This document shows, piece after piece, positions 5,203 through 52,007 of a stretch of DNA of 64,000 nucleotides. The stretch's first letter is position 1. The number at the start of each line of letters is the position of its first letter. Origin of the DNA: Haplodiscus bocki. Taxonomy: Eukaryota. A program made the position numbers and the translations under genes. The notes below the pieces were generated by a model. That model had not been told where the DNA came from and searched no databases. It saw nothing but the letters and a program-made list of their open reading frames with translations. The stretch spans positions 5,394,001 through 5,458,000 of the forward strand of contig OZ296648.1 in NCBI GenBank assembly GCA_965655095.1, written 5' to 3'.

Positions 5203-6809
5203 GTTTTATCACTTACATATACCGCATCATATTTCATCAATTGTATTTTAAGGATACGTAGTAGTTACGTATCCACCTAGTACACATATATGTAATCCAT
5301 GCCAACGATACGTAGTAATTACGTATCGTTCCATAGCATGTAGTTCATGTAAAAAGCACGGATCCTATACGTGTAATTCTGAGGAACTGATCCGGATTGG
5401 GACGGGGCAGATACGGAGCAAATGGATATTCATCTACTTCCGTAATGTAGTTTTATGTTATTATTAGGTGGTATTTCTTTATAATTATTCTAACTAGTTT
5501 TTATATAAATCCACCTTTTTAACTGACTGGTGCAGTGAGTAATTTAATCGAACTGACAGTTTCAACAAGTTTTCAATAGCGGTTATCTATTATTACGGAG
5601 CGTGACTTTAAAAGTGAATCTTTGTTCCGTATGTGTTCCGTCGTAACTAATCTGGTAACGTCAGCAGAATTTCAGCCAATCCGCTGCGCTACTATCCTGT
5701 GTCACTTTGGACGGAGACGGAACGATTTCGTAGCCACCTGATTCATTCTCCTCAGTAGTACTGCGGAGAGCAGTGCTACAAGCGGTTACGTGGTCGCTCC
5801 GGATTGCTCCGGCCAAAGCTAGGCCTGAGCTGGCAGAACTCTGGAACGGACTAGGAAAATCCCTAGTTTTGTTCCCATCAAGGGAATTAATCGATGCAGT
5901 ATACGACCACATGAAAACAATAGTTTTTCCAGCTTTTATATGAACTTTATTTTAGGTATTTCATTTATTTTTCGAGGTATTTTTATTAATTTCCTCTGAT
6001 GGAAAACTTCTTTGATCTTTGTTTATGTTATTATTTATTGTGTCGGCGCGGGAATAGCCGCTTTGATGTCCATTTCTGACGGATTGGACTCGTATCCGAA
6101 AAATGGAAAGGAGGACGTCCATGAAGGAAGAAATGGACGGAGAGGTGTTTATTTCCTGCCAGAGTCGGCATTTATCCCTTTATAGATAATATGATTGAAG
6201 TACTTTTCCCTATTTGTACCTTGATTTAGCGTGTAATTAATTACGTTTCCCGCCAAGGAAACGCATAAATAGGAGAAAAGAAAGTACTATTATTATTATA
6301 TAAATTGCAGCCTTTCGGTATTGTACTGAATTTGATATCATTAACTGCTTGCATTTATTGAACCCTTCTCCCTCATAATAAGATGAGATTAACACCTATG
6401 TTTTAAAAAACAAAACTTCAATTCAGTCTTCACAGCTGACAACACTTTTCCTTCAGTATCATGGCAACTATGGGAAATAAGAGAAAATTAGCGGCAGTTT
6501 CGAGAGAAACACCTGAAAACACAAGGAACAGTCAGTCACAGAACACACTTGATCAAGAAATGGCTCAGGATTATAGCTCCCAGGTTTCTGAAGAGATCGA
6601 AGGGAGAGTAACTAAAAAAATTTCAAAAGAATTCAGCTGGACGGAGTCCCGCATTTTGGCTGCTTTGTCTAAACTTGTTGAATTTCTTCTGATCCCGCAA
6701 GTTCGGACTTGTTCCATAGCCGTTCCAGGAACATCCAGGAACAGCGACTCATAAAACCGGGAACCCATTGGTGATCGTTCCCCAAACGATCCCTGTCCCA
6801 AAGTGTTTT
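5078..6809 (+). repeat. 3' LTR of element C, left part (continues at 15525-15586)
   Basis: Begins with TG right after the PPT, is homologous along its length to the element A LTR, and contains the gag N-terminal ORF starting at 6461. Confidence 0.75.
6461..6809 (+). pseudogene. gag: gag N-terminal segment encoded inside the LTR of element C
   Basis: MATMGNKRKLAAVSRE..QVSEEIEGRVTKKISKEFS.TESRIL is homologous to the N-terminus of element A gag (14106 downward). Premature stop at 6752-6754. Confidence 0.7.
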
Positions 6810-8749
6810 TGTCATAGTCCCTTTCTGTACCAGAGTTATGTTCCATCTGACCGTGGAAGAGACTTGCTTCAGGATGAGGATCATTCTGGGAGTTGTCCTC
6901 ATTTGTTCCCTGGTTTATACCTGATGCGTTCCGGGTGGGCTCCGGAGTGGTTCCGGAGCCACTTGGTAGTAGTGGGTTCATAAAAAAATCATCGAGCCGC
7001 GCTAGTGCACCTAGGATGCGGCTTTTGTTCTGCTGAACTCCTTTGACAACCTCTTTGTGACCCTTCCCTCAATCTTCTCGGAAACTTGAGTTATGTAGTC
7101 CTCCTGCGATCTAGGAGCGCTTGAGTTTTGTGCCAAGTTGCTCCTAGGATGCTCTTCACAATTTTCCTTATTTAATGCTGCCAATTTCCTCTTGTTTCGA
7201 GTTGTCATCTTTTACGAGAAAAATAAAGATCAGTAAGTAATACTTGATTATTTTTCTGAAGGAGAAATCATATTCGGTCTTTTTAACAGTTTTTATCGAC
7301 ATCGAAGGGAAATACTATACTGGAATATTATCATCAGTATATTACAATAAATAAAAATTGTGTCCTCTGTACCTTCATTTCTCCTATTTATACCTTTTCC
7401 TGGCGGGAAACATAATTGTTTACACGCCAAGTCAAGGTACAAATAAGGAAAAGTACTGTCTAAAAGTAAAACATCAAAGTTAGAAATGCCGACTCTGGCG
7501 GGAACTAAACAACCTTTCCATCCATCTCTTCCATCATAAGACGCGCCTTTTCCATCTTCCGACAGAAAATGGACGGTCCTAATCCGTCGGAGATGAACAT
7601 CAAAGCCTTTATTCCCGCGCCGACATGTTGTTTACAGTCTTATTAAACTAATTTCCTTAATTGGGAAAGGAAAATAAAATGAGTAAAATGAAAAAAAGAA
7701 GAAATAAAATAAAATACAAAATTCATGACTTCATTCTAGAAACACATTAAATCATCATTTCCATGTTCATTTCATCATCACTTGATTATTTAGTCTTTTG
7801 GAAATGAGGAGAAACTAGTATCACTACTAGTTTACTCCTCGTTCCGACTAGTGGCTACTAGTGGTGTCCGGAACAGCTCCGTAGCCACTAGTAGTATTAG
7901 TTGAATTTCAGGTAGATACTAGTGGTATCCGGAACAGTTCCGTAGCCACTGGTAGCATTCGCTTCAATTCAGTCTGCTACTAGTGGTATCCGGAACAGTT
8001 CCGTAGCCACTGGTAGCATTCGTTTCAATTCAGTCTGCTACTAGTGGTGTCCGGAACAGCTCCGTAGCCACTAGTAGTACAAGTTAATTCAGTCAGCGTT
8101 ACTAGTGGTATCCGGAACAGTTCCGTAGCCACTGGTAGCATTCGCTTCAATTCAGTCTGCTACTAGTGGTATCCGGAACAGCTCCGTAGCCACTAGTAGT
8201 ACAAGTTAATGCAGTCAGCGCTACTAGTGGTATCCGGAACAGTTCCGTAGCCACTAGTAGTACTAGCTTCAATACAGTCAGGCGTGCTCAAAGTAGGAGT
8301 GAATACGGAGTCACTCCGTATTCACCATAGCACTGCAGCACAGCATAGCTATAAGAATGATTGTGACGTCACCAGACTAGTAGCGACGGAACGCGTACGG
8401 AACAAATATTCACTCCGAGAGTCAATTTGATAGCACTTTAGCACAGTAAGCTAAGTTAATAACACTCAAAAGGTGGATGTAAATCAAATAAAATGAATAA
8501 GTTATAACAAATTATAGCACCTTTTAGAATGAAACGCTCTGTGAATATCCCTTTGTTCCGTAACGGTTCCGTATTAGTCCGGATCAGTTCACTAGGGTGA
8601 TCCGTATATGATACGGATCAGTAACATGAAAATTAAGAGAAATATGAAATATTGTGTTTTATTTACAGCTCATCAATTCCCTTGAGAGTCTGGGAATGTT
8701 CTTTTCTTCTGCAGCTCTAATCCGCAGGCTTCACAAGCATACTGCGACA
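6810..8749 (-). repeat. 3' LTR of element A (1940 bp)
   Basis: Direct repeat of 13707-15524. Starts TGTCGCAG after the PPT and ends GACTATGACA. Confidence 0.9.
7850..8280. repeat. ~61-bp tandem repeat (7 units) inside the 3' LTR of A; each unit contains an inverted repeat
   Basis: Unit CTACTAGTGGT(A/G)TCCGGAACAG(T/C)TCCGTAGCCACT(A/G)GTAG plus a variable tail; arms CTACTAGTGG and CCACTAGTAG. Confidence 0.9.
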
Positions 8750-8930
8750 CTCCCCTTCTTTAAGAAAGGACATTCCACGGTCAATGTTTTTTGCCTGTTG
8801 TCATTGGGCTCTGCTCTTGACGAATGTTCCACATAGAAAACACAATTGTCACGATGTAGCCAATCACATGAATTGCATCAACTCGTAAATGAAGATTTTT
8901 GTATGTTGATAGAATCCATTGAAAAAACCA
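8700..8930 (-). pseudogene. Internally deleted ORF3 remnant of element A
   Basis: DNCVFYVEHSS (~8818-8850) matches IDSDVFYVEQSS of C. The downstream GGAATGTCCTTT..PPT..TGTCGCAGTATGCTTGTGAAGCCTGC (VSQYACEAC) matches C 5050-5103. Confidence 0.55.
8750..8761 (-). other. Polypurine tract of element A
   Basis: AAAGAAGGGGAG abuts the 3' LTR start and is absent in front of the 5' LTR. Confidence 0.85.
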
Positions 8931-9272
8931 AGGAGAACTTGTGAAGTGGCGGGGCAAATACGGAAACATTCCGTAGCTTTCTTGTCAGGCAGGAATTCCT
9001 TTGCAGTGTGAGTCGTGAAAGGTAAAAGAATGAAGTTAAGTGACATTAAGTGTAGTGTGATGTAAAGGATATTAGTCTTTAAACAAGACAAGGAATTGAA
9101 TATTTGAAATGAGGAAATTTTGAGTCCCATTCCTCAACGTATCCTTGAAATGTCATGCTGATGTTTTTGCTGGCAGACACATCCATCAAAATTAGATAAT
9201 ATAGGGGTAAAAGATAAAGTATGTAAATACACAGTTTAATAACTTGATAGTCTAATAGCCCCGTGCTTCAAT

Positions 9273-10480
9273 TTGAACAAGAAGAAAATTTTGTCAGTCA
9301 ATACAAAGGAGAGTGTTGTGGGTGTAGAAGACGTGGGCTCATCTCAGGGTGAGTTCGTCACTCAGGTTGCTGGAGCTGGCGAGCGAGAATTTCCAGTAAT
9401 TCCCGTGATGTCCCGGTTGAGAAGTTGCAGAGAAGTGAAGAAAAGGCGAGGTTGGAGAATCCGGAGTCAGTCCGTATCGAAACTGCATGCGTTGCTGCTG
9501 ATTTGGGTGTCCAGTACCCTGTCGTTTCCAGAGACTTTATCAAGGATGGGGATAAACGTCCCATGCCTGGAGAATGTGCCACTATAACTGCTGATGAGGC
9601 GGATGATTATGTGGATGTCGTTGGGAGCGGTACCCCGGTGCATAGTTATATGGAATCTGAGGGGTTCACCTTCAGAGAGTCCGTGAGCAATGCTTTCTTG
9701 AAAGACTTAAGCGGGGTTCTTGATACTTCTGGCATTCCCTCGTTAAAATTTTTAATTAATCTTATCTTCACTCTGCTTTAGCTTTTCTCGGTAGACTTTA
9801 CATATTCGCGACTATGTAAGTCTTTTTAAGCTAGTTATATCCGTGCGCACTATATCCTGAAGATGGCATCATGAGGTTGTTGGATTTCAGTGTATGGATC
9901 ATCTGGAGGGCCTGCTGGTCGTCCGCAGTGCTCCCGGGCAGTTTCCACTGAACTGTGTGGATCGGAATTTGACGTTGGTGGGCGACCTCTGAAAATGGGG
10001 TGCGGAAGAGAGCTTCCAGGAAAGGCGGCCTCATGGATATCCTTGAGAGTTGATTTTCTTCACATATAATTCAAATTCTCCGTTCATGTGCATTCATGTT
10101 TTAGCAACGTCTTTATGTGTAGGTGCTAATGAGGAGAGGCCTGTGAGATTTGGCCAGGAGAAATTTTCTACTGGGGTTGAGAGCGAGAGCCAGATTCGAC
10201 TGAAGAAGGCGATTGTAAGGAGACGTTTGGCTCCTTTTTCAAAATGCCGCATTGTCAAGAAAGATCCCCTTTGTTCCAGTTTTGATCGGAGCCGCACCTT
10301 CTTGAGGCGAGTTCTTGATGAGGGTAATGCTTTGGTTTCCTTGTGGAGATTTCTAGTATGATTCCTCATTTGATCCTAATTGCACCTTGTTTCCGTGTTA
10401 TGGACCAGTTTACTGCAGATCCTGCTTCTACGAGCACAAATGTCACCGGGCACCAGGTCGTGTTTAATAAGTGTCCGCTC
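9273..10480 (+). pseudogene. 5' part of the antisense cargo gene in element A
   Basis: SGGPAGRPQCSRAVSTELCGSEFDVG matches C SGEPAVHPEISDSCAPGYSGTEFEVG. STGVESESQIRLKKAIVRRRLAPF..SRTFLRRVLDEG matches C STEAETKRQRRFRSARISRRLVPL..SRTSLEQAFNDG. TGHQVV matches C TGHQLV. Candidate acceptor TGTGTAG|G at ~10122. Confidence 0.6.
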
Positions 10481-10559
10481 GGGTAGTTTTCGTGGATTAC
10501 TGGGATGACTCTAGTTTCCATACTACTTTTTCCCTAATTTTGGTAATGGTCAAATTTGG

Positions 10560-10850
10560 GGGTTCCGGCAGTACTCCGTACTCCTTTCCTGTTTATCGTC
10601 ACTAATCCATGGGAACTAGGAGATTTTTAGTAGCGTTCCTAGTCAGTTCCTCATTTTGTCGTGATAACAGCAGCTTGTACTAGGAAACTTCCAGGAGTAC
10701 TCCAAGGTGACTCCTCATTTGGTCGGGCGTCATCAGGGGGAAAACTAGGAAAGTTTCCGGACCACTCCTAGTTTCTGACTCATTCAGTTGGACGTTTCGG
10801 GGCAAACTAGGAAAGTTTCCGTATCACTCCTGGTTCAATCCTCATTTGGT
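10560..10850. repeat. Degenerate ~63-bp tandem repeat (4-5 units) in the internal region of element A
   Basis: Recurring ACTAGGA(A/G)A..TT...A..(A/T)CC...CTCATT at ~10615, 10679, 10744, 10807. Confidence 0.6.
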
Positions 10851-11577
10851 AGTCTGCTTCAGAGGTGGGAGGGAGTATCCAGTTTCTGCCATTCTCTGGT
10901 CACCTTGTTTGTGTCGTTTCAGTTGCACACAATTTCACCGAATTGGTCTAGGAGCGTGCTGATTATGGCTATTTGGCATTCGGGGAGCTCTCCCACTTTG
11001 TGTATTGTTTGCTACAAAAAGTGAAGCGGAGTAGCGATTTGCCAGTCATTGAGAAGTGGGGTGCGAGAAGAAGTAGTCGTGATTGCCGTAGTGCCCCAGT
11101 TTTCCAAGGGGGTTACCAATTACAAATTAATTGTTTTTATGTATAGACTTCTCGCATTTGAAAATTAGTAAAAGTTTGTATGAATTCAATTAGATTAGCC
11201 GTCAATTTTGCATGGGTAAAATGAGTAGGAAGCGTGTCGCTGTACAGGAAATATCCTCAAAACACAAGGAATATTTGTGTGTATTCCGTATTGTACCCGG
11301 AATCAAATTTTGGTGGATTTTCCGGAATGGTTCCGGAAACGCTCCGGATACCATCTAGTGATATATTAGGGCAGTGTGATGAGGATCCAATTTCCAGTAT
11401 CTGCAAGTGCCAAAAATTGTATTGTTCCATCTGTTGTGCTCGGTAGTTATTTCAGAACGTCTTCTAGGCGCTTGAAAGAATATATAGATTTTCCGCGTAT
11501 CATTTCCATAACACGTTCCTAGGGTTTCCGGAAAGTGTACGTATCCGTTCCATAGCACATACTAGGACAGGTTCCGA

Positions 11578-12360
11578 AATTCGATGTCTGTAATTGTCGT
11601 TGGAATTTAGCTTCAGGGTCTGACGTAGACCATTTTTACGCTTTGGGTGGTTGATCGAATTAGGGTTATGATGGTCCAAATTTGTGTCCCTCGTGTAGCT
11701 AGTGTTACGATCCGTATCCATTCCGTCATCTATCCCTCCTTTTCATGAAGACTTTCTGGGCAAAATTCTGGTGTTGTGTCTGGTATACTACTAGTCAAAT
11801 GGACTGTCTCAACAAACTGTTTTTGAAATCCAGAGGAACTTACAGTTTTGAAGAACTAGGATAGAGGACAGTGGCAAATAGAAGTCGTTCATCCCTCGCC
11901 TCTTTTAAGATTTTCCGAAATAGTGAAATTCTTTTTGTGAGAGGGGAAAATTGTCATCTCCGTCACATGTGAGCTGTGATATCGTCATTCGTGTCTAGGG
12001 TTACGTTTTGACTGTTCTGGGAGTGATTGAGGCACAGTACTGGTTTGCTCCTAGTTTGATTTTCTATTCCGTAGCGGTTCCGGATTCTGAAGTGAGATTC
12101 TTTTTAATGGCGACGTTTTTGATTCTAAATCATCTCTCTGTTTTAGTTCAGGTGTATGTGTGTTTTAGTCAGTTTCAGCAGTAGAGTTGTTATAAATATT
12201 AGCTAACTTGAACTATCCACAGATGTCTCCAGAAATTGCTGCCAGACAACAACTGGGATTACTGGAATTTTCTTCTGGTGGTCTCCGGTCTCTCACTCAC
12301 AGTTCCGGAGCGAAAATGTGGCATTTGTAGTTAAGATATTGGGTTGTGGCCCGGACACAA
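11578..12360 (-). pseudogene. Remnant of pol in element A (extreme C-terminus recognisable; PR, RT, RH and IN missing)
   Basis: C-terminal motif HPKRKNGLRQTLKLNSNDNYRH (~11580-11650) is homologous to the element B pol end HGGKYNQRLNANSNFSDS*RY (~25886-25950). Only ~0.8 kb separates it from the gag end. Confidence 0.55.
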
Positions 12361-12416
12361 CCAGTTATACTGTTCTGTGCGTCCTGTTGAAAATGTCCAC
12401 TTTGTTCTTCCGGTTT

Positions 12417-14106
12417 TCACTTCCAGGGAAGTGGCCTGTTTGCTGCATTGGCTCCAACATAACATCTCTCTGCGGAGTGGTTCGTTTTTCCACATGTCTC
12501 ACAAGGAGGATGAACTGTTTCTGGCTTCGTTTCAGCTCTGTTACTGTTTTTGAAGTTGTTGTGGTCATTATTATTGGTGTTGTTGTGTGGGATATAGTTA
12601 TTGGCGTCACTGTTTTTGTTTCCAGGATTATTTTGATTATTTTCACTTTCTTCTATCTGATTTTTCAACAGGCGACACTGATTTCTATAATGCCCTGGTT
12701 TTCCGCAGTGGTGGCACCTTGGTTTGGATCTGTCATCCTTAGCGTTTTTGAGTTGTTGGCTCACAGTGTTTATCTGTAGCTAATCAGGGGCTTCGAAACC
12801 ATTCAGCTCTAATTCCCTTTCCAGGTGTGTGACAATCTGTTCATACGTGCCATTCTCCAGATGGGCCTGATTTATTGCTTTCTTCAGGTCTGGTGGCATT
12901 TTGGCATATATGAATTGTTCAATGATGGCATGAGCAGCTATTCCGAATGCCTCTTTGGCCAGTTTTTGAAGTTCGTCAAGAAACTCTACTAACTTTTGCT
13001 TTGCTGGATTGAAGACGAGTTTCTGGAATTTGTGTTTTGCTGTTGCCATCGATTGGGGTTTTACATACTTCCTTCGGAAAACTGCTAGAAGTTTTCCCAG
13101 ATTCTCTCGGGTTGTGCCATTAATGTTTTTAAAGGTTTGTAGGGCATCTCCCCTCATGAGAGAATGGAAGTAGTTGATTCTGTCATCTTCGGCCAGTTGG
13201 TTATGGATTTTGAGACTCGTCTGAAAAAGGTCTTCAAAAAGCTCAATTTTCTCAGTTTTCCTGTCAAACGTGGGCATCGTTGTGGTTAATGATTTTGGCA
13301 GTTTGGAAATTCTGTTGATATTATTGTGAAAGTTCGCAGAATTGTTGTTATTTGCCAACTGTTGAAGGGCCAACAAAATTTGGTCTGCTTCGATCGTCGC
13401 AGGTGTGTTTTCACTGCGGAATTGTGGTTGACCGGTAGAGCGGTTTTTCTTCTGCTTCCCTGAATATGTACTAGGGGGCAGTATGTGACTTCCTCGTAAA
13501 CTCCAGTCATATCGTGGCAATTACCAATCCGTTTTGTGGCTCCTGTCACCCTGTCATGATCGTAGGCTCTCTCTCTGTGTGTTCCTGTTACATTTCGTGG
13601 CGATTCCTATTCATTTCTGTAGCTCCTGTCACCATGTCATAGTCCCAGAGACTCTCTTCCTGAACTGCTCTCACCATGTCGTGGCGTTCTGTAACTCCTG
13701 TCACCATGTCATAGTCCCTTTCTGTGCCAGAGTTTTGTTCCCTCTGACCGTGGAAGAGACTTGCTTCAGAATGAGGATCATTCTGGGAGTCGCCCTTATT
13801 CGTTCCCTGGTTTATACCTGATGCGTTCCGGGTGGGCTCCGGAGTGGTTCCGGAGCCACCTGGTAGTAGTGGGTTCATAAGAAAATCATCGAGTCGCGCT
13901 AGTGCACCTAGGATGCGGTTTTTCGTTCTGCTGAACTCCTTTGACAACCTTTTTGTGACCCTTCCCTCAATTTCCTCGGAAACTTGAGTTATGTAGTCCT
14001 CCTGCGATCTAGGAGCGCTTGAGTTTTGTGCCAAGTTGCTCCTAGGATGCTCTTCACAATTTTCCTTATTTAATGCTGCCAATTTCCTCTTGTTTCGAGT
14101 TGTCAT
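12417..14106 (-). pseudogene. gag: gag of element A (starts inside the 5' LTR; capsid-like domain and two CCHC zinc knuckles; 2-3 disruptions)
   Basis: ORFs 13588-14106, 12780-13520 (MPTFD..FEDLFQTSLKI..YFHSLMRGDALQTF..) and 12417-12764 with CHHCGKPGHYRNQC and CETCGKTNHSAERC. In-frame TAG at 12780-12782. Confidence 0.9.
13500..13706 (-). repeat. Primer-binding site plus five degenerate tandem copies (tRNA-Leu-like PBS array, in frame with gag)
   Basis: TGGTGACAGGAG at 13706-13695 lies directly after the LTR end, followed by TGGTGAGAGCAG, TGGTGACAGGAG, TGTAACAGGAA, GGGTGACAGGAG and TGACTGGAG. Each copy is preceded by an LTR-end-like GACA/GAAA/GATA. Confidence 0.75.
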
Positions 14107-15524
14107 CTTTTACGAGAAAAATAAAGATCAGTAAGTAATACTTGATTATTTTTCTGAAGGAGAAATCATATTCGGTCTTTTTAACAGTTTTTATCGACAA
14201 CGAAGGGAAATACTATACTGGAATATTATCATCAGTATATTACAATAAATAAAAATTGTGTCCTCTGTACCTTCATTTCTCCTATTTATACCTTTTCCTG
14301 GCGGGACACATAATTGTTTAAGCGCCAAGTCAAGGTACAAATAAGGAAAAGTACTGTCTAAAAGTATAACATCAAAGTTAGAAAAGCCGACTCTGGCGGG
14401 AACTAAACAACCTTTCCATCCATCTCTTCCATCATAAGACGCGCCTTTTCCATCTTCCGACAGAAAATGGACGGTCCTAATCCGTCGGAGATGAACATCA
14501 AAGCCTTTATTCCCGCGCCGACATGTTGTTTACAGTCTTATTAAACTAATTTCCTTAATTGGGAAAGGAAAATAAAATGAGTAAAATGAAAAAAAGAAGA
14601 AATAAAATAAAATACAAAATTCATGACTTCATTCTAGAAACACATTAAATCATCATTTCCATGTTCATTTCATCATCACTTGATTATTTAGTCTTTTGGA
14701 AATGAGGAGAAACTAGTATCACTACTAGTTTACTCCTCGTTCCGACTAGTGGCTACTAGTGGTGTCCGGAACAGCTCCGTAGCCACTAGTAGTATTAGTT
14801 GAATTTCAGGTAGATACTAGTGGTATCCGGAACAGTTCCGTAGCCACTGGTAGCATTCGCTTCAATTCAGTCTGCTACTAGTGGTATCCGGAACAGTTCC
14901 GTAGCCACTGGTAGCATTCGTTTCAATTCAGTCTGCTACTAGTGGTGTCCGGAACAGCTCCGTAGCCACTAGTAGTACAAGTTAATTCAGTCAGCGTTAC
15001 TAGTGGTATCCGGAACAGTTCCGTAGCCACTAGTAGTACTAGCTTCAATACAGTCAGGCGTGCTCAAAGTAGAGTGAATACGGAGTCACTCCGTATTCAC
15101 CATAGCACTGCAGCACAGCATAGCTATAAGAATGATTGTGACGTCACCAGACTAGTAGCGACGGAACGCGTACGGAACAAATATTCACTCCGAGAGTCAA
15201 TTTGATAGCACTTTAGCACAGTAAGCTAAGTTAATAACACTCAAAAGGTGGATGTAAATCAAATAAAATGAATAAGTTATAACAAATTATAGCACCTTTT
15301 AGAATGAAACGCTCTGTGAATATCCCTTTGTTCCGTAACGGTTCCGTATTAGTCCGGATCAGTTCACTAGGGTGATCCGTATATGATACGGATCAGTAAC
15401 ATGAAAATTAAGAGAAATATGAAATATTGTGTTTTATTTACAGCTCATCAATTCCCTTGAGGGTCTGGGAATGTTCTTTTCTTCTGAAGCTCTAATCCTC
15501 AGGCTTCGCAAGCATACTGCGACA
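13707..15524 (-). repeat. 5' LTR of element A (1818 bp; 5 units of the 61-bp repeat at ~14750-15056)
   Basis: Direct repeat of 6810-8749. The 122-bp length difference equals two repeat units. Confidence 0.9.
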
Positions 15525-15586: not shown

Positions 15587-15971
15587 AAGGGGATAGCTTT
15601 TGAGGAATGACATCAATAATTTAGAGATTTTAGAATGATTATATGAACCATATTTGTTCCACAATATAGATCGCTGGTTTATACGCTCAACTTCAGTTTT
15701 TGGAACAGTTTCAGTTCGCAAACCCCCAAATGCATCACTGTGAAGACAAAAACGGTTTTATAAAGTCAAAAGTCTGGTTTTCATTTTTTCATGGAATCAG
15801 GGCAACAATATTATGGGCACTTGTGGATTCAGACTGACTATAATCTGGACCATAAATGTCCAGACTATGGTCAACCCGAAACATAAACATTTATGACTAA
15901 ACTATGATCAGCCTGGAATCATGCTCTGTTTATTATGACAGAGTATGATCAGCCTGCTCTTGTAAGGGAGG

Positions 15972-16162
15972 TCAACCCGGGGTATTCAATTCTGATCTAA
16001 TTCAAGTTTACCATGGTAAGTTTGATTTAGATCAGAATTGAGTGCCCCGGGTTGAGCATAAATCCAGAAGCTCGTGTGGCCACTTATAAACTGAAAATCA
16101 CAACACTGCAGTGGTGTGATTTTCAGTTTCTAAGTGGCCACACGAACTTTTGAAATTATGCT
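15972..16162. repeat. Two abutting long palindromes (15972-16055 and 16055-16162), foldback/MITE-like
   Basis: TCAACCCGGGG..CCATGG..CCCCGGGTTGA and AGCATAA..GTGTGGCCACTTA..CTGCAG..TAAGTGGCCACAC..TTATGCT. Confidence 0.85.
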
Positions 16163-16290
16163 ATATTTAGAGTTCTTACACTTTTTTAAGCATTCATTTA
16201 ACATTTCTAAGTTAATTTTTCAACATTAACCAAGAAATAGTGCAATATTTGAACCTGAATCAAATATAACGCCTCGGGACAAAAATCTTT

Positions 16291-16374
16291 TGCTACCACT
16301 GGGATTCGAACCCAGGCGGACTTTTGTCCATTTGGATCTTATGTCCAACGCCTTAACCACTCGGCCATAGTAGC
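16291..16374 (-). tRNA. trnL-TAA: tRNA-Leu(TAA), variant or possible pseudogene (U33->A)
   Basis: GCTACTATGGCCGAGTGGTTAAGGCGTTGGACATAAGATCCAAATGGACAAAAGTCCGCCTGGGTTCGAATCCCAGTGGTAGCA has a 7-bp acceptor stem, A and B boxes, a long variable arm and discriminator A. A TTTTT terminator lies just downstream. Confidence 0.85.
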
Positions 16375-16739
16375 TTAAAATTTGGTTAGGTCAATCAATG
16401 TTCCAAATCATATATCTGAATCTCATTATACATTTTACATCATTCAGTTACGCATTTTTTGAGACCAGTCGAATTTATGCACTTTACGTAAAGAGAATTA
16501 TGAGCACACTCAAAAGCAATTGTGTGCTGAAAACGTACGTTTCAAATTTTAATAAAAGTTGAAGATATACTTAAAGAAAATACAGTAAGGTAAGAAAATA
16601 TTAGATCCCTTTGTTGGGAGTTTATTGGTAACTACAATTGGCAAGATCGAGATTTCGCTTACCAGTGTTGTCGAACTGATACTCAGGTGCACTTAAATTA
16701 GAGCTGGTACCTTCCATTGGGTAATAATTCGGATGTAAT

Positions 16740-17236
16740 GCTGTTGCCATTCCTCGGACAAACCGAGCCAAATCCTGTAGCTGTCTCGTGAGGGGTGCAA
16801 GGAAACATTTAATCTGCTCATCGACTTCCTCTTGAGTTATTGTGTGGATTACAGGCCCTTCATCTTCGTTAGCCTCAGGCGTTCATGACGGGACTACCTT
16901 CGGAGCTGCTGTTTTCGCTCATAACTGTTTGTCAAGCGAGTATCCGTGCGCGTTACGGCCCGTGTCGGTATCCGCCCTTGGGTAATGATTCGGATGCGAT
17001 GCGACCAATAATATTTGGACGAGCCGAGTCAAATCTTCTGGCTGTCTCGCGAGTGGCGCGATGAAGCTCTTGGTTTGTTCATTTACTTCTTCTTGCGTTA
17101 AAGTGCAGACTTCGGGCGCTTCGCTTTCGTTGGTGTGAAAGTTAGGTGTTGAGGCCGGGAAGTCGCCATCATCCAAGATTTCAACATTACGAGTCTCATC
17201 ATTTCTGTCGTGATCAACGTTTAAATCTATTAGGTT
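16740..17236 (-). pseudogene. Fragment of a related retroelement ORF, with an internally duplicated motif
   Basis: NLIDLNVDHDRNDETRNVE resembles the LTR-encoded RIDLNFDRYRKDETCKV of element B. TLTQEEVNEQTKSFIAPLARQPEDLTRLV is repeated as TITQEEVDEQIKCFLAPLTRQLQDLARFV. Confidence 0.45.
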
Positions 17237-17270
17237 GGTAATATAGGTGACCAGTGGGGTTGTGGCGACT

Positions 17271-18990
17271 TTAGTTTGCAAGATTCTTTAGAATAGATGT
17301 CGGTGCATTTTGAGTTGACGTTCCTGGTTTATGACTTTCGTCTGTGGAATCCTTACGAGTTTCAGTTTTGTGCATTTTGGTTCTGTTAGCCGCATTTGAG
17401 CCATTCCAGCACATATCAGCCGTATGATTACTTCTCTGGCAGTGCGGACAGGATAGGAATTTTTTTGACTTTTGTTTTTCGGTATTTTGCTTTTCATATT
17501 GTCGTTCCTGCTTCTTACGAATGCGTTTGAGGCATTCTTTGATAACATGGCCTGCTTTTTTGCAGTATCGGCATAATATTTGTAGTTTTTCTGAGTTCTG
17601 TGGTTGGTTTTGCTTTCTTACTATTTTTGTTGTAGTTGCCATGGTGGTTATTGCTAGTTCTCAATCTGTTTCCAACGCGATAATTTCAAGTTCACGCTCT
17701 AGGTGTGCAAAAATTCGAGCATAGATGGCATTTTCTAGAAATGCAACGTTGATTGATCTTTTAAGGTGTGGGGTTGTTCTGCCTATGGTAAACTGACTAT
17801 CATTTGTTTTGCAAGAGATCCAACAGCTTGCTCGGCACATTCATTTTCTTCATCGAGGAAATCTGGTATTGATTTCGTGTTTGAATCGAAAGTGGGTTTA
17901 TGCCATTTGCTGTGGCTTGTGATTTGTGGTCTAACGTACTTTCGCCAGAATTTGAGGAGTACAAACTTGATTTTTCGTTTTTTTTGTGGCATTCATGTTT
18001 CTAAATGTTTGTAATGCCTCTTTCGGAAGTTTTGAATGGAAATGGTTTATTTTCCTTGATTCTGACTTCTCGGGTTGCTTTTTCAGGATAGTTTGAAAAA
18101 AGTCTTCGAACATGTCAAATTTGAATTTTTACCATCCAAGATCGATATGTTTGTTGTTGTTGTCTTCAATATTGCTGAAGACTTTTGTAGTCGTTGTTGG
18201 GATGCAATGCCTGCGAATGCAGCAGCAAATTCCCTGACGGGGTTGCCCGATTCTGAGTTTTATCTCTGCGGTGTTTGTTCACCATTGTCAATGTGCTGTA
18301 GGATGCAATGTGTGTTGCCACATTTGGCGATTGTGTAAAATGATGAGGCAATGGGTTGTTTTGAGTTTGAATTCGTCCTTTGAAATAATCAGGGATAAAG
18401 TTTTGTGGGGCAACAACTTCTGTCATCATTTGATGAGCGTCTGCTCGGCGGTTATAGTTAGGTCCTTTTACCGTATAGTCGGTATCTTTTTATTTTGCAA
18501 CCTTACAAGTCTCATCCTTTCTATATCGATCAAAGTTCAAATCTATTCGACTAGAGCCCGACATGAGAGGGGTTTCTTTAGCATTCAATGTGAAATCCCC
18601 CTGATCATTTATTTGGACCAGATTGTTGGGTCCCCTTTCTGATGACTCGGTGATAGATCTCACGGCTATTTCATCTCTCGGCTCTACCAAATTGTTCACC
18701 ACCATCAAAATTGCGCCAAACATTACACTTTTGACAGCCATAACAGCTCTATCAACCATATTTCTGATTTCGTCGACAATTTTTTTTCATTGACTCGATC
18801 CTGACATACACCATCTCCGTTAGCTGTAATCCCTTCGAAATTATTAGAACTACTGTTGGGTTGGGATTCGAAGATGTCATGTCCTATTGCACCTGCATTG
18901 GTATCATTACCAATGGCAAAATCGTTTACAGTTTGGTTCAACTGACTAATCTGTCTTTTGTATCGGAGTGTCTTCTTTCCTTTAGAATCT
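17271..18990 (-). pseudogene. gag: gag (element B family) starting inside the downstream LTR; frameshifted
   Basis: FEDFFQTILKKQPE..KINHFHSKLPKEALQTF, RKYVRPQ, and knuckles CRYCKKAGHVIKEC and CPHCQRSNHTADMC. PBS-like TGATGACAGAAG at 18428-18417. Confidence 0.85.
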
Positions 18991-20285
18991 ATGTTGTGTA
19001 AAAATGTAAGAAGGACTCAAAGTCAAAATCAACAGAGTGAAACACCAATCAGAACTATCAAATTTTATAATTGATGTGAGTTATGGATACAAAGATCAAT
19101 TGTTTTGCCAAATGACCAAATTGAGTCATCAACTGTCGAGTAGAATAGGCGAGGATAATAATGATTTTCCTTTTCTTGACTTCGGGCAAAGGGGAACTGA
19201 GGCTCTTCTTCTCTTCTCGTCACCCAAGCAAGTTCTCCCGGAGGTGACGAGGTATGTGAAACTATAACTAAAAGTGTAACTTTAAATGGAAAACTTCCGC
19301 CAAAATCATGACGTCATATTTACATGTTTTTAAAAAAAATAGACTTTCTAAATAAAAGTCAACAAAGAAAAGAATAGTTCTTTTGCATGACATTCAAAAA
19401 ATAAAATAACGGCTGTAAGGGTGATATTATATGTAGATGAATGCATTTCATCTAATTTAGATGCACAAATAAAATTGTGTAAACGGAATAGCGTCAAAAT
19501 TTAATATGTATGACATACTTATGACATAGCAGTAAATGAGGATGAGATAGGGCGGTTATTACTTTTTTCAAAATATGTAGTTTGACGTACGTTTGACTTT
19601 AGTCTTAAATCCTTTACATTAATTCCCTGTGGTGTAAATAAAGGGAAATACTTTTACATCAGTTTCACAATTAATATATAGATATTCTTATGTTAATTCA
19701 TCATCACTGGAAGCATAAAATTACTCTTGGCTATTTTTGGTACCGCCGTCATGTTTAATGCTGCTTTACTTTACGTCAATTTCCTGGTCAGTGACGTGAT
19801 TTAGACACATATTCTGAGTAGTAGTGCGGCGGAAGAAGTAAAAGCCTGGCTGACGTCAGCTACGTCAAAGTCACGTCAATAGCACTTTTTATGACATGAA
19901 AAATTGAAGGCGCCTGTTCGTTGTCAATAGATAATCAGTTTAGCCTTAGCCGACCAGAATTTGACAGAGCAATGAACAAACTGATAATATTGTACTACAC
20001 TGAATTTGTTTCCCTCTTTCCGCTCCTGTGTGCTTCTTATTGTTAATATTAGTAGGGATTTACAACTCACATTAAACATAACTTATAAACTTCATAGCCT
20101 CGTAAAATATTAGGTTCTCCTATAGGTACAAAAGGACTTGTAGTTTTAGGAATCTGTGCATGTGTTCAAACGTGTACCTTAGTTTTAATCTTGAAACAGA
20201 GGCAAAAGTTTTCCTTGAGTTTCCTGACAGGTTCCTCCGTTGTTGATTTAAATTATTATGCCGTCACAGGCAGCAGCTTGCGGCA
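18429..20285 (-). repeat. Downstream (3') LTR of element B
   Basis: Homologous to 33447-35326. It ends just before a PBS-like sequence and contains TGACGTCA at 19309 and 19851. Confidence 0.65.
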
Positions 20286-20999
20286 CTCAGCGGGGTACAA
20301 AAGTGACCACACCGGACTGTAAACCGTCTAGAAATGCCTGTCGTTTAATGTGGCAGTTTCTGATCGTTTTTCCAGGCTCAGCTGTGCGGTGTATATAATC
20401 GGCGACTGTTTCCTTGAGTACCTGGGCGTATGGTTTGCCACATACTGTTCATCTTGTAACTTGTTTGTTTATTTCTGAGCAGGCATTTACTGCACGCTCT
20501 TGTAGATCTTGTACTACCGAATTGATAACTGGTATTGAATGAGAGTTTTTCGCGGGGGAGTATCTGTCAATTTATATGGTCGGATATTATTTGTCTGACC
20601 TCTGTTTGACGGCACTGGTGATTCGGATGAATCTGGCATTGGTTATTTTTGTCGACGTATTTCTGTAAAGTGGGGTCCAGTTTGAGAAAAGTAACTTGTG
20701 GTTGCCTCATATACGTTGTGTAAATGTTTGGTCAGTTGTGATCAAGAATTTGTTGTCATAGATAGGGATGGTTCGGTCGGATCGGTGTCATAAGTTGAGA
20801 TTGTGACTGCGTCTGACAGTTCATTAGGACAGACCAGAAATTGATTCCATGTCTCATTTTGGGTGTTATCATCTTTCGTCAAGTACTGGTCAGACATAGT
20901 GTATTGTGACGCGGTGTCTTCATTGCTTGACAGATATATGGGGTCTGGTTGCATGGTTTCATCTTCATCCATCACGACTTGGGTTGTTTCTCCAGCCAT
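20250..20999 (-). pseudogene. ORF3 of element B: acidic Ser/Thr-rich ORF running towards/into the 3' LTR
   Basis: MAGETTQVVMDEDETMQPDPIYLSS..AVTISTYDTDPTEPS occupies the same position and orientation as ORF3 of C (..FVTIDSGSNEPT). Confidence 0.45.
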
Positions 21000-30720: not shown

Positions 30721-30988
30721 GGGTAATATAGGTGACCAGTTGGGTTGTGGCGACTTTAGTTTGCGGGTTTGGTTTTATAAAGTCAAAAGTCTGGTTTTCA
30801 TTTTTTCATGGAATCAGGGCAACAATAGTATGGGCACTTGTGGATTCAGACTGACTATAATCTGGACCATAAATGTCCAGACTATGGTCAACCCGAAACA
30901 TAAACATTTATGACTAAACTATGATCAGCCTGGAATCATGCTCTGTTTATTATGACAGAGTATGATCAGCCTGCTCTTGTAAGGGAGG

Positions 30989-31179
30989 TCAACCCGGGGT
31001 ATTCAATTCTGATCTAATTCAAGTTTACCATGGTAAGTTTGATTTAGATCAAAATTGAGTGCCCCGGGTTGAGCATAAATCCAGAAGCTCGTGTGGCCAC
31101 TTATAAACTGAAAATCAGAACACTGCAGTGGTGTGATTTTCAGTTTCTAAGTGGCCACACGAACTTTTGAAATTATGCT
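30989..31179. repeat. Second copy of the twin palindromes
   Basis: Matches 15972-16162 with ~2 substitutions. Confidence 0.85.
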
Positions 31180-31307
31180 ATATTTAGAGTTCTTACAATT
31201 TTTTAAGCATTCATTTAACATTTCTAAGTTAATTTTTCAACATAAACCAAGAAATAGTGCAATATTTGAACCTGAATCAAATATAACGCCTCGGGACAAA
31301 AATCTTT

Positions 31308-31391
31308 TGCTACCACTGGGATTCGAACCCAGGCGGACTTTTGTCCATTTGGATCTTATGTCCAACGCCTTAACCACTCGGCCATAGTAGC
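31308..31391 (-). tRNA. trnL-TAA: tRNA-Leu(TAA), identical copy of 16291-16374
   Basis: Same sequence, including the CATAAGA anticodon loop and downstream TTTTT. Confidence 0.85.
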
Positions 31392-32287
31392 TTAAAATTT
31401 GGTTAGGTCAATCAATGTTCCAAATCATATATCTGAATCTCATTATACATTTTACATCATTCAGTTACGCATTTTTTGAGACCAGTCGAATTTATGCACT
31501 TTACGTAAAGAGAATTATGAGCACACTCAAAAGCAATTGTGTGCTGAAAACGTACGTTTCAAATTTTAATAAAAGTTGAAGATATACTTAAAGAAAATAC
31601 AGTAAGGTAAGAAAATATTAGATCCCTTTGTTGGGAGTTTATTGGTAACTACAATTGGCAAGATCGAGATTTCGCTTACCAGTGTTGTCGAACTGATACT
31701 CAGGTGCACTTAAATTAGAGCTGGTACCTTCCATTGGGTAATAATTCGGATGTAATGCTGTTGCCATTCCTCGGACAAACCGAGCCAAATCCTGTAGCTG
31801 TCTCGTGAGGGGTGCAAGGAAACATTTAATCTGCTCATCGACTTCCTCTTGAGTTATTGTGTGGATTACAGGCCCTTCATCTTCGTTAGCCTCAGGCGTT
31901 CATGACGGGACTACCTTCGGAGCTGCTGTTTTCGCTCATAACTGTTTGTCAAGCGAGTATCCGTGCGCGTTACGGCCCGTGTCGGTATCCGCCCTTGGGT
32001 AATGATTCGGATGCGATGCGACCAATAATATTTGGACGAGCCGAGTCAAATCTTCTGGCTGTCTCGCGAGTGGCGCGATGAAGCTCTTGGTTTGTTCATT
32101 TACTTCTTCTTGCGTTAAAGTGCAGACTTCGGGCGCTTCGCTTTCGTTGGTGTGAAAGTTAGGTGTTGAGGCCGGGAAGTCGCCATCATCCAAGATTTCA
32201 ACATTACGAGTCTCATCATTTCTGTCGTGATCAACGTTTAAATCTATTAGGTTGGTAATATAGGTGACCAGTGGGGTTGTGGCGACT

Positions 32288-34010
32288 TTAGTTTGCAAGA
32301 TTCTTTAGAATAGATGTCGGTGCATTTTGAGTTGACGTTCCTGGTTTATGACTTTCGTCTGTGGAATCCTTACGAGTTTCAGTTTTGTGCATTTTGGTTC
32401 TGTTAGCCGCATTTGAGCCATTCCAGCACATATCTGGCGTATGATTACTTCTCTGGCAGTGCGGACAATATAGGAATTTTTTTGACTTTTGTTTTTCGGT
32501 ATTTTGCTTTTCATATTGTCGTTCCTGCTTCTTACGAATGCGTTTGAGGCATTCTTTGATAACACGGCCTGCTTATTTGCAGTATCGGCATAATATTTGC
32601 AGTTTTTCTGAGTTCTGTGGTTGGTTTTGCTTTCTTACTATTTTTGTTGTAGTTGCCATGGTGGTTATTGCTAGTTCTCAATCTGTTTCCAACACGATAA
32701 TTTCAAGTTCACGCTCTGGGTGTGCAAAAATTCGAGCATAGATGACATTTTCTAGGAATGCAACGTTGATTGAACGTTTAAGGTGTGGGGTTGTCCTGCC
32801 TATGGTAAACTGACTATCATTTGTTTTGCAAGAAATCCAACAGCTTGCTCGGCACATTCATTTTCTTCATCGAGGAAATCTGGTATTGATTTCGTGTTTG
32901 AATCGAAAGTGGGTTTATGCCATTTGCTGTGGCTTGTGATTGTGGTCTAACGTTCATTCGCCAGAATTTGAGGAGTACAAAATTGATTTTTTGTTTTTTT
33001 TTGTGGCATTCATGTTTCTAAATGTTTGTAATGCCTCTTTCGGAAGTTGTGGATGGAAATGGTTTATTTTCTTTGATTCTGACTTCTCCTGGTTGCTTTT
33101 TCAGCATACTTTGAAAAAAGTCTTCGAACTTGTCAAACTTGAATTTTTACCATCCAAGATCAATATGTTCGTTGTTGTTGGCTTCAATATTGCTGAAGAC
33201 TTTTGGAATCGTTGTTGGGATGCAATGCCTGAGATTGCAGCAGCAAATTCCCTGACGGGGTTGCCCGATTCTGAGTTTTATCTCTGCGGTGTTTGTTCAC
33301 CATTGTCAATGTGCTGTAGGATGCAATGTGTGTTGCCACATTTGGCGATTGTGTAAAATGATGAGGCAATGGGTTGTTTTGAGTTTGAATTCGTCCTTTG
33401 AAATAATCAGGGATAAAGTTTTGTGGGGCAACAACTTCTGTCATCATTTGATGAGCGTCCCTTCGGCGGTTATAGTTAGGTCCTTTTACCGTATAGTCGG
33501 TATCTTTTTATTTTGCAACTTTACAAGTCTCATCCTTTCTATATCGATCAACGTTTAAATCTTTTCGACTAGAGCCCGACATGAGAGGGGTTTCTTTAGT
33601 ATTCAATGTGATCCCAGCAATCCCCCTGATCATTTATTTGGACCACATTGTTGGGTCCCCTTTCTGATGACTCGGTGATAGATCTCACGGCTATTTCATC
33701 TCTCTGCATTACCAAATTGTTCACCACCATCAAAATTGCGCCAAGCATTACCTTTTTCACAGCCATAACAGCTCTATCAACCACATTTCTGATTTCGTCG
33801 ACAATTTTTTTTCCTTGACTCGATCCTGACATACACCATCTCCGTTCGCTGTAAACCCTTCAAAAATATTAGAACTACTGTTGGGTTGGGGTTCGAAGAT
33901 CTCATGCCCTATTGCACCTGCATTGGTATCATTACCAATGGCAAAATCGTTTACAGTTTGATTCAACTGACTAATCTGTCTTTTGTATCGGAGTGTCTTC
34001 TTTCCTTCAG
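32288..34010 (-). pseudogene. gag: gag of element B (starts within the 5' LTR; frameshifted)
   Basis: Close homolog of 17271-18990, with CCHC knuckles near 32420-32590 and a PBS-like TGATGACAGAAG directly after the LTR end at 33447. Confidence 0.85.
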
Positions 34011-35326
34011 AATCTATGTTGTGTAAAAATTTAAGAAGGACTCAAAGTCAAAATCAACAGAGTGAAACAACAATCAAAAGTATCAAATTTTATATTTGAT
34101 GTGAGTTATGGATACAAAGATCAATTGTTTTAACTAATGACCAAATTGAGTCATCAACTGTCGAGTAGAATAGTCGAGGATATTAATGATTTTCCTTTTC
34201 TTGACTTCGGGCAAAGGGGAACTGACGGTCTTGTTCTCTTCTCGTCACCCAATCAAGTTCTCCCGAAGGTGACGTTGTATTTGAAACATTAACTAAAAAT
34301 GTAACTTTAAGTGGAAAACTACCGCCATAATCATGACATCATATTTACATGTTTCGAAAAATAACATGAGCATTCTGAATATAAGTCAACAAAGAAAAGA
34401 ATACCTCCTTTGCATGACATTCGGAAAAATTATCAATGGCTGTGATGGTGATAATATATGTGGAGGAAAGGGCTTCATCTAATTTACATGCACAGATAAA
34501 ATTTTGTAAATAAGATGGCTTCATAATCTCTTGTATAAGACATATTTATGAATTAGCACAAATTGAGACTGATTAGGGGTGGTTATTATTTATGTCGAAA
34601 ATAGTTAGTGTGACGTAATTTTGATTTTAGTCGTAGAGTCCTGTACATTAATTCTCAGTCATTGTAAAATAGTAGAGGAAAACGTTTAAATGATTTCCAA
34701 AAAAAAAGATTTTTATGTAATTCCGTGAATAATTCAACATCAGTGGAAGCCTAAGATCACTGTTAGCTAATTTATTGTACCGCCGTCTTTTTTAATGCTG
34801 TTTTTTGCATCAATTTACCCGTCATTGGGTTGAGATTGACAGAAGTTCTGAATGGTAGTGCGGCGGAGGAACTAAAGCCTTGGCTGCCGTCGGCGACGTC
34901 AAAAGCACTTTTTCTGACATGATAAGTTAAAGGCGCTTGTTCTTTTTCAACGGTTAGTCAGTGTACCGTTAGCCAATCAGAATCTGACGGAAGAGCGAAA
35001 AATATTATAATATGAGACTACACTGAATTCGTTTCCTTCTTTGCGCTCAAGTTTGCTTCTTTTAGTGATATTTGTATGGATTTATATCTGACATAAAATA
35101 TAACATATTAGCTTCATAGGCTCATAAACTTATACATTCTCGTATAGGTCGTAAGGTACTCACAAATATAGAAATTTCTCGAAAAACTTCATTTCTGTGA
35201 ATGTATTCATAAGTGTACCTTAGTTTTGATCTTGGAACAGTGGCAAAACGTTTCGTTGGTGTTCCCCGCAGGTGTCTTCCTTGTCGTTTTGATATAATAT
35301 GCCGTAACAGGTGGCAGCATGTGACA
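33447..35326 (-). repeat. Upstream (5') LTR of element B
   Basis: Starts TGTCACA; homology to 18429-20285 stops at about this point. Confidence 0.65.
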
Positions 35327-36839
35327 CTAAGTGCCATGAGAAATTATTCCGGAATTTCTTTAGTCAGTTTTCAAGTCATTTGCAATTTTCAGGACTTTAA
35401 TTTGTTACTGAATTTAGGTTAGATGAGATTTCAAAACAAAGTTTCTGTTTTCTGACGTAAATTGGATGACAGAAGTTGATTTCGGTGAAAACTAAAGGCA
35501 GGCGGGAAAAACTGCAAGGGGCAAAGTATTTTCTACTCGGCTCACTCTATTGGTTGCTTGTTGTTCCTGGAGATGATTCGAGCTTTTCCATTGTAAGTTA
35601 CACGTTGGTCTATTGATTGCGCAAACTTTTTGTTGATTTTGATGAAAAAGCGTTGTCAAGTAACCGATGGTATAGCGCAAGTTTTACCATGGGCGAGTTG
35701 CCATTGGCTCCTCAGATGGCGTGCTAAAAAGTTAATTAGTGTCTGAAATCAATTTCACCTCAAAAATTGTGGATACTTTTCCAAAACTTTATAATTTTAG
35801 CGCTATAGACTTGCATAAAATCCATTGAGTGGAATAGATATCACAAACAGCACTTCTTTTAGCGAGATGTTTTTTTTGGCTGAAGTTCTAAAAACCCCTA
35901 TGTTTTTGAGTGTATTCAAGATGTTGGTAGTATTGTATTGTGTCGTTTTGCGGTGAGTGTCAGTTTCATCGGAATTCATCCTTCTGCTCGGTCTTATTTT
36001 TCAGATTGTTCTATTGTTGCCATTCAGCAAATGGTTCAATTAGTTTATTGTGCTTGGATGATTTCCTATGTAATTCATTCAAAATAAACTTCATAAAGGA
36101 TACTATGGTTTAGTAGTAGGGCCTTTAGTTCACGTTTTTCATGGCAGTTTTTGAAGAATGATGGATAATGGTGTTATTATCTACTTTCAGAATGTTACCT
36201 TCTCCTGGATGAAAAACCGATAATGCTCAAAAAAATGCTGCGATTGCTAATCAGTGCGGCTGTCGTTCTTTCGATGAAAACCAATGAACTCAAAAAATCC
36301 TTACGACAGGCAGTATAGCCGGTTCTCGTGGCATTGATCGAAACTGACGAAGATAAAATAGTCGTTACTTCGCTATGATTTGTTCACACCACTCGAATAT
36401 TCACCGATAAAAACTGTAACAAACAATAATCTGTTTTGTTGCTTTTTGCACACTAGTGCAAGTTCTTTTTTGAACCTAGACGAGTTTATGTTATTTAGAA
36501 TAGAAAAATGGGTTTAAAATATCAAGCTGATATTTTCCGGAGAAAGTGTAATCAGGCCCTTTGTTTTTGTCTGTCTCGTAGGCAGATGTTGTGGCGTTTA
36601 ATTTTGCGGTCTGAATTTATTGGGGTCGTTTATGTGGCTTATATTGTACGCGAGCCTTTATTGCAATTTGTAATATTAGCAGAATCGTTCTAGCACTCCG
36701 ATGCTCGACGGATAGAGACACCTATGTACACTCAGCAAAGCCATGTAGATAGAACATTTGGTTGATCAAACAATACATTATCTCTTTCATACTAGAAAGT
36801 AATAGTACAAAGTTGCACCTATACTTTCAGCAGTTTCTG

Positions 36840-47779: not shown

Positions 47780-48330
47780 ATCTTTCTTTCCTTTCCTTGC
47801 AAAAAAATAATCAACAACACCTCATTTTGGATCTGTCAAAAGAAAGATAATTGAATTCTTCCTCTTTCCATTCTTCCCCGCAAAGATAACCAAAATCGTC
47901 CTAACTGATATCAATTCCAGCATTAACTCTAAATCAATTTGCACATACTTCCCATATCGGCAAATGAACGTAACATACAAATTTGTTGGAGTAAAAATTC
48001 TATGTTAAGTTTTTTACTGTTTCCTCGTTCACTAAATCAGAAAAGAATTGGATTGAATAGTTTATATCTAAGTCTTTATGAAGTCCTTTTTGGGAAAATC
48101 GATCAAATTTGCTCTTTAAGATGTGACACCTCACCAAATAGGACAATACCTTTTTTTTATTCTTCGTAAACTAAAACTTCTTTTGTTGCTTCAATGCCTT
48201 CATATTTGTCAGGAGATCTGGTTAGTATGAATAAAACTCTATCAATTACGTTTTTCTTTTTGTTCAAAAAATGTAAAGTTTCCCAGAAAAGAATGATCTG
48301 CACCTAATTTTATCCTTTTATTTACAGGTT
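47780..48330 (-). pseudogene. A32/FtsK-like DNA-packaging ATPase pseudogene (Polinton), copy 1
   Basis: Degenerate Walker A (SFFSGKLY), ILTRSPDKY, Walker-B-like GIVLFGE, DRFSQKGLHKDLDINYSIQ (RGRH-like arginine motif) and AGIDIS*DDFGYLCGEEWKEEEFNYL. Confidence 0.6.
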
Positions 48331-51300: not shown

Positions 51301-51454
51301 TGTCTACCAAAAATTTCTTGTAAAGGTACACGCTTCACTTTTGATTGTTACTCTGCTAATTCATCCAGTTCTCTTAAAGCATCTTAAATTTCAACTGAAA
51401 AAATCATTTTTCCAATCTCTTGACAACGATTCGTTTCTGATTTAGCCTGTCTAT

Positions 51455-52007
51455 ATCTTTCTTTCCTTTCCTTGCAAAAAAAATAATCAACAACACCTCA
51501 TTTTGGATCTGTCAAAAGAAAGATAATTGAATTCTTCCTCTTTCCATTCTTCCCCGCAAAGATAACCAAAATCGTCCTAACTGATATCAATTCCAGCATT
51601 AACTCTAAATCAATTTGCACATACTTCCCATATCGGCAAATGAACGTAACATACAAATTTGTCGGAGTAAAAATTCTATGTTAAGTTTTTTACTGTTTCC
51701 TCGTTCACTAAAACAGAAAAGAATTGGATTGAATAGTTTATATCTGAGTCTTTATGAGGTTCTTTTTGGGAAAATCGATCAAATTTGCTCTTTAAGATGT
51801 GACACCTCACCAAATAGGACAATACCTTTTTTTTTATTCTTCGTAAACTAAAACTTCTTTTGTTGCTTCAATGCCTTCATAATTGTCAGGAGATCTGGTT
51901 AGTATGAATAAAACTCTATCAATTACGTTTTTCTTTTTGTTCAAAAAATGTAAAGTTTCCCAGAAAAGAATGATCTGCACCTAATTTTATCCTATTATTT
52001 ACAGGTT
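51455..52007 (-). pseudogene. Packaging ATPase pseudogene, copy 2
   Basis: Duplicate of 47780-48330. Confidence 0.6.

Follow-up and report, generated by a model that had tools for sequence, protein, structure and literature searches.

In LTR retrotransposons, the end of the LTR is usually viewed as fixed by one primer-binding site (PBS). During replication, primer position determines where the right end of the cDNA falls, this end being remade in each cycle, and reverse transcription on the tRNA primer usually stops after 18 nt. In yeast Ty1, the LTR contains the start of gag and the PBS is located within coding sequence; this copia-type element has one PBS and auxiliary tRNA-pairing boxes, and repeated LTR ends are absent. 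Engineered HIV-1 vectors with two PBSs were reportedly studied by Voronin and Pathak in 2004, with initiation, by the title of that work, at either site. No natural tandem array of PBSs, each preceded by its own LTR end (att), and with priming at distal units, surfaced in the full-text literature, in whose coverage subscription papers are mostly not included. A review (PMC7472051) states, in part of its text, that inheritance of the PBS is strict in Ty1 and Ty3 and that the tRNA is not copied; it also describes the silencing of mouse ERVs by 3′ tRNA fragments, these ERVs having PBS mismatches.

We analysed a 64,000-nt stretch of DNA from Haplodiscus bocki, referred to hereafter as the window, which contains an LTR element with six tandem att+PBS units. 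Like ordinary Ty3/gypsy elements, its family has TG...CA LTRs, a 5-bp target-site duplication (TSD), a tRNA PBS, a polypurine tract (PPT), a CCHC gag and, in the relative L090, the order PR-RT-RH-IN. Unlike them, it has one to 11 tandem att+PBS units, about 130 gag codons within the LTR and a PBS that abuts the LTR without a gap, and the window copy lacks pol. The PBS lies inside gag as in Ty1, so that changes in the PBS region must preserve the frame, but Ty1 is copia-type with a single PBS, whereas this family is Ty3/gypsy with repeated LTR ends. Initiation at more than one site would be shared with the HIV-1 vectors; the sites described here, however, are natural, lie in coding sequence and each have their own integrase end, and their distal use appears to have produced insertions that are viable and, in one case, a boundary shift that became fixed. 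Whereas the mouse ERVs have PBS mismatches, at least in the part of the review that treats them (PMC7472051), perfect sites are multiplied in this family.

Results

The window copy and its array

The window copy lies on the minus strand. Its 5′ LTR (A; 15524-13707, 1818 bp) runs from TGTCGCAG to TATGACA and contains gag codons 1-133 together with five 61-bp repeats (14752-15057). The 3′ LTR (B; 8749-6810, 1940 bp) lies directly after the PPT (8761-8750) and contains seven 61-bp repeats (7854-8281). The two LTRs are direct, have TG...CA ends and are 95.6-98.0% identical. No TSD is common to A and B, so the window copy may be a recombinant.

The gag 5′ open reading frame (ORF; 14106-13588) has its ATG at 14106, within LTR A, and spans units 1-3 of the array; an intact homologue is present in L090. 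The frame breaks in unit 4, with a stop at 13590-13588. The gag 3′ part (13520-12420) carries Retrotrans_gag (PF03732), DUF1759 and a CCHC knuckle and is interrupted by stops, and the downstream ORF (13520-12780) is in a different frame from the 5′ ORF. A six-frame Pfam scan of 8749-13706 gave no pol match, and the possibility that this copy has a pol gene was rejected on that ground; it is gag-only and non-autonomous.

The six units occupy 13715-13501, directly after the 5′ LTR, with PBS starts spaced by 30, 42, 41, 42 and 39 nt. PBS 1 (13706-13695), which would be the main priming site of the family, has no mismatch to TGGTGACAGGAG and matches the 3′ end of the host tRNA-Leu perfectly, over 13 nt when the next base is counted. 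PBS 2 (13676-13665) has two mismatches, PBS 3 (13634-13623) none and PBS 5 (13551-13540) one; the att before PBS 3 is identical to the LTR end. PBS 4 (13593-13582), where the gag frame breaks, and PBS 6 (13512-13501), which belongs to the most decayed unit class of the family, are relics with four mismatches each. The att+PBS 16-mer, searched with up to three mismatches, gave four matches, all inside the array, as compared with 0.16 expected, and four were reached in none of 100 shuffles. Positions, spacing and shuffle test therefore bear out an earlier, sequence-only reading of this locus, which had described six LTR-end and PBS units on the minus strand. That reading had also assigned a single copy to B; B is the 3′ LTR, its right end is att 1 and no PBS comes after it.

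Several other repeats were noted. An older inverted piece of a related LTR (window 5613-6287) is 77-86% identical to parts of A and B. The window also contains a 3.67-kb direct tandem duplication (47407-54751; 98.7% identical) and a satellite with a 9-bp unit in ~900 copies and with higher-order periods (55765-63947). Contigs of two public runs, the kind of which is unrecorded, contained variants of the array and joints skipping parts of it, and no piece spanning it; these contigs are left out of the evidence considered here.

The primer

The PBS matches the 3′ end of a host tRNA-Leu exactly over 12 nt, and over 13 nt when the next base is T. The tRNA 3′-end pattern complementary to the PBS had 690 genomic matches, as compared with none for the reversed control. 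At ten loci examined, ARAGORN identified tRNA-Leu(CAG) at two, and a further two were intron-bearing Leu genes by eye. The complementary host tRNA on which the sequence-only reading hinged is thus present. The motif had been placed one base from the canonical tRNA-Leu(CAG) PBS by comparison with the tRNA of another species, an offset that disappears with the host's own tRNA-Leu.

Most of the 690 matches probably lie in a big array (G000:C1:161.09-161.15 Mb) in which tRNA-Leu-like genes are repeated in tandem every ~424 bp. Six of the ten loci (L033, L034, L035, L036, L037 and L039, at about position 1500) are tRNA 3′ halves of ~40-47 nt with a genomic CCA, most of which stop just past the anticodon at G37, a base that is often methylated in tRNA. 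Four of these halves have ~300 nt of adjoining sequence in common, apparently from another LTR-like family, and the halves may be integrated read-through of the primer by reverse transcriptase. The initial 11 nt of the LTR (window 15524-15514) resemble, possibly by chance, the tRNA-Leu stretch right after the anticodon (L031:1441-1522). Within the window, a 4.6-kb duplication (15754-20290 and 30771-35331; 92% identical) carries in each duplicate one tRNA-Leu(TAA) gene and two adjoining palindromes of 84 and 108 nt.

The family: unit number and frame

The gag of L090 (553 aa) starts in the LTR, and its pol has the order PR-RT-RH-IN (PF13975, below its cut-off; PF00078; PF17917/PF17919; PF17921; PF00665); the closest match of solved structure is Ty3 Gag-Pol (PDB 7q5b, E 1.9e-29). 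From these gag and PR-RT-RH-IN domains, the family is assigned to the Ty3/gypsy (Metaviridae) LTR retrotransposons. An exact 5-bp TSD was present in 14 of 18 copies of a young subfamily. Full-length relatives measure ~13.8 kb between LTR ends and have antisense ORFs beyond integrase; the one scanned, in L090 (8815-9999, minus strand; 175 aa), had no Pfam match. Tandem PBS units also occur in a more distant family with another LTR end (L042, L058, L067, L089 and L275).

A search with the LTR end as anchor gave 2009 genomic matches, and the first 100 examined comprised 36 running into gag and 64 right ends. Counted as they stand in the assembly, the 36 gag-linked arrays had 1-11 units, which answers the call of the sequence-only reading for a count across copies; 31 had more than one unit and five a single unit. 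Unit and mismatch counts on the one hand and frame counts on the other came from separate parses. Unit lengths were multiples of three in 99 of 104 cases. With regard to a CRISPR-like acquisition array, the spacers of which would come from foreign sequence, the one spacer traced (L244) led to a sister subfamily's LTR end; the other spacers (74 distinct among 104) are alike by eye. In the young subfamily, one, two and three perfect PBSs were present in two, nine and five of 16 arrays, respectively, and seven copies, representing all three classes, had zero differences across 750 nt of flank. On this comparison, point mutation is slower than change in unit number.

The gag frame is intact in 32 of the 36 arrays. 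The earlier statement that the array is read in frame therefore stands for the family, but in the window copy only units 1-3 stay in frame from the ATG. An intact frame would be expected if the Gag peptide repeat (H/Y)DMVTG were what matters and the PBS likeness incidental, as would the loose repeat match (at least one) seen in 86 of the 87 homologous Gag proteins parsed, among 120 listed. However, the number of repeats varies from one to 11, LTR ends coincide with units (see below), and 11 of 49 middle-unit substitutions fell at synonymous sites, which make up three of 12 positions; there is thus no synonymous enrichment in these copies, which are not independent. The array did not undergo the synonymous scrambling that would accompany conservation of the protein only; this candidate was rejected on the synonymous-site count, and the mapping of LTR ends largely refutes it. 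The substitution pattern indicates that conservation of the array is at the nucleotide level, and we consider an explanation by the peptide highly improbable.

Selection might maintain the array, whose spare units would then stand in for a mutated PBS or act as a putative sponge for 3′ tRNA-Leu fragments that would block priming, the decoy role suggested in the sequence-only reading. The prevalence of multi-unit arrays (31/36) is consistent with this, and middle units often have a perfect PBS (39/73). In addition, a sister lineage survived the death of its PBS (see below), and the PBS of mouse ERVs is targeted by 3′ tRNA fragments in the part of the review concerned (PMC7472051). Against it, five arrays manage with a single unit, and the proportion of perfect PBSs drops from 23 of 31 in first units to one of 31 in last units. 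Perfect middle units are explicable by recent duplication, and more perfect sites might equally increase silencing. Selection for the array thus seems to us quite unlikely, and the array looks tolerated, not required.

LTR ends at distal units

A right end of an LTR at a given att would mean priming at the PBS that follows it. In the unbiased sample, 63 of the 64 right ends lay at att 1, the exception being at att 2, and all 18 right ends of the young subfamily were at att 1. Together with targeted searches, 20 distal right ends were found, at atts 2 to 6. Ten came from 43 of the 49 matches to one pattern, the other six matches having the spacer of the young subfamily's internal last unit. A second pattern (421 matches) gave three among 30 examined in order and five among 14 hand-picked for an unusual next base; one came from a search for long tRNA copies and one from the unbiased sample. 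An exact 5-bp TSD flanks ten of them (L071, L072, L075, L077, L079, L080, L258, L278, L282 and L283), among which L079 is of the same subfamily as the window copy, and a TSD matching at four of five positions flanks six (L074, L076, L219, L286, L293 and L294); the remaining four are untestable.

Distal ends could also be formed once the element has integrated, either through a deletion at microhomology that joins a distal att to the 3′ LTR end or through gene conversion with the 5′ array as donor; the array itself would then be an inert minisatellite. Because deletion yields a product identical to that of distal priming, with an intact TSD, solo LTRs are insufficient to demonstrate priming, and they account for 11 of the 18 distal ends that could be classified. 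The adjoining 61-bp repeats, moreover, are also variable. The other seven distal ends belong to 3′ LTRs preceded by a PPT, a proportion near that in the unbiased sample (17 of 38 classifiable ends), which argues that distal ends are not merely deletion products. Three of the elements (L278, L282 and L283) are full, having an internal region, a PPT and an exact TSD, and end at att 2. Divergence between the extension and the 5′ unit was about the same as that between the two LTRs in four of five full elements (2.9/4.0, 4.8/4.8, 7.1/8.0 and 7.5/6.6%), the odd one being L286 (4.8% as compared with 0.4%); this disfavours later gene conversion. Finally, the end is shifted in an entire sister lineage. 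An origin after integration is therefore unlikely.

We conclude from the inserted copies that distal priming is likely to be real and rare. The unbiased sample, taken with the total of 20 distal ends, suggests that distal PBSs are likely to prime about 1-2% of insertions. The sequence-only reading had proposed that the units offer alternative priming sites and LTR ends, and had suggested mapping 3′ LTR ends to them. The 16 distal ends with an exact or 4-of-5 TSD, and the seven that are 3′ LTRs, speak for this proposal, yet only about one end in 64 is distal.

A probable LTR boundary shift in a sister lineage

In a long sister lineage (699 matches), a dead 24-nt unit, with a PBS match of ~8/12, lies just before the first live PBS. 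Examination of 30 of these matches revealed 19 right ends past the dead unit, ten gag-linked copies and one end lying one unit further. In a short sister (105 matches), 23 right ends among the 25 matches examined lay at the homologous att that precedes the dead unit, and both gag-linked copies had a live PBS directly after that att. The LTR of the long sister thus ends 24 nt further out; the two sisters diverge by 15% over the preceding 400 nt. The simplest reading of these sequences is that the first PBS died, that priming moved one unit outward and that the LTR absorbed the relic. The boundary is therefore likely to have moved outward in one lineage.

Gain and loss of units

Copies of 18-19 nt of the tRNA were found at the first PBS in five of five matches, with L025 as a further, 17-nt case. 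In L243 and L244, the tRNA copy is followed by 87 nt aligning to the LTR end of the sister subfamily and then by the PBS. The unit-1 spacer of L244 scored 117 against the sister LTR end, as compared with at most 57 for shuffles. This unit looks like a new one, made when plus-strand transfer used a sister template and landed on it at a point upstream of the PBS. The 3′ LTR of L244 itself ends past the chimeric unit and has an exact TSD. A candidate hairpin in L244 that would occlude PBS 1 was dropped, the stretch being homologous to the end of the sister LTR.

In three elements with att-3 ends and an upstream array that was read (L073, L286 and L292), the 3′ LTR carries a pair of near-identical units, as compared with a single unit in the upstream array; a verified TSD is missing in two of the three. 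The mismatch in unit count fits an out-of-register transfer, and also fits later unequal exchange. The number of 61-bp LTR repeats varies as well (two to four among 15 young LTRs; five and seven in A and B of the window), and unit turnover therefore need not be PBS-specific. The strand-transfer slippage suggested in the sequence-only reading is thus upheld in part, by the 18-19 nt tRNA copies, the chimeric unit and the difference in count between 3′ LTR and array, while generic repeat instability acts too. Since long tRNA copies are rare (five matches) and the tRNA is not copied in Ty1 and Ty3, as far as the relevant part of the review goes (PMC7472051), we do not claim that the tRNA routinely resets PBS 1.

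Discussion

The comparisons made here suggest that the family works as an ordinary tRNA-primed Ty3/gypsy element with, in addition, several usable primer sites, each with an integrase end. The array probably consists of tolerated duplications, which provide alternative priming sites of minor use and which moved an LTR boundary once, an account in which we have good confidence. PBS 1 would prime nearly all reverse transcription and the outer PBSs a small share. Duplications would arise during reverse transcription, and strand transfers that are out of register would add and remove units. PBS pairing would involve 12-13 nt and reverse transcriptase would copy 18 nt of the tRNA, with the same landing site in every unit; with a short pairing, a longer tRNA copy and a site repeated in each unit, a transfer can miss its register. 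Since the reading frame of gag, from its start within the LTR, continues through the array, active lineages would keep only in-frame units. Death of the first PBS would lead to priming at the next unit, the dead unit becoming part of the LTR.

A more far-reaching form of this account is possible but doubtful. Here the process would act as a ratchet, in which mis-landed transfers add units and loss of PBS 1 pushes priming outward. Repeated rounds would have put the ~130 gag codons into both LTRs, and spare units would insure against PBS mutation or attack by tRNA fragments.

LTR finders may mis-set boundaries at repeated PBSs. The family constitutes a countable fossil record of what would be primer-site choice, mis-landed strand transfers and a single shift of the LTR boundary throughout one lineage, and with it primer-site competition and the evolution of LTR boundaries become testable by genome sequence alone.
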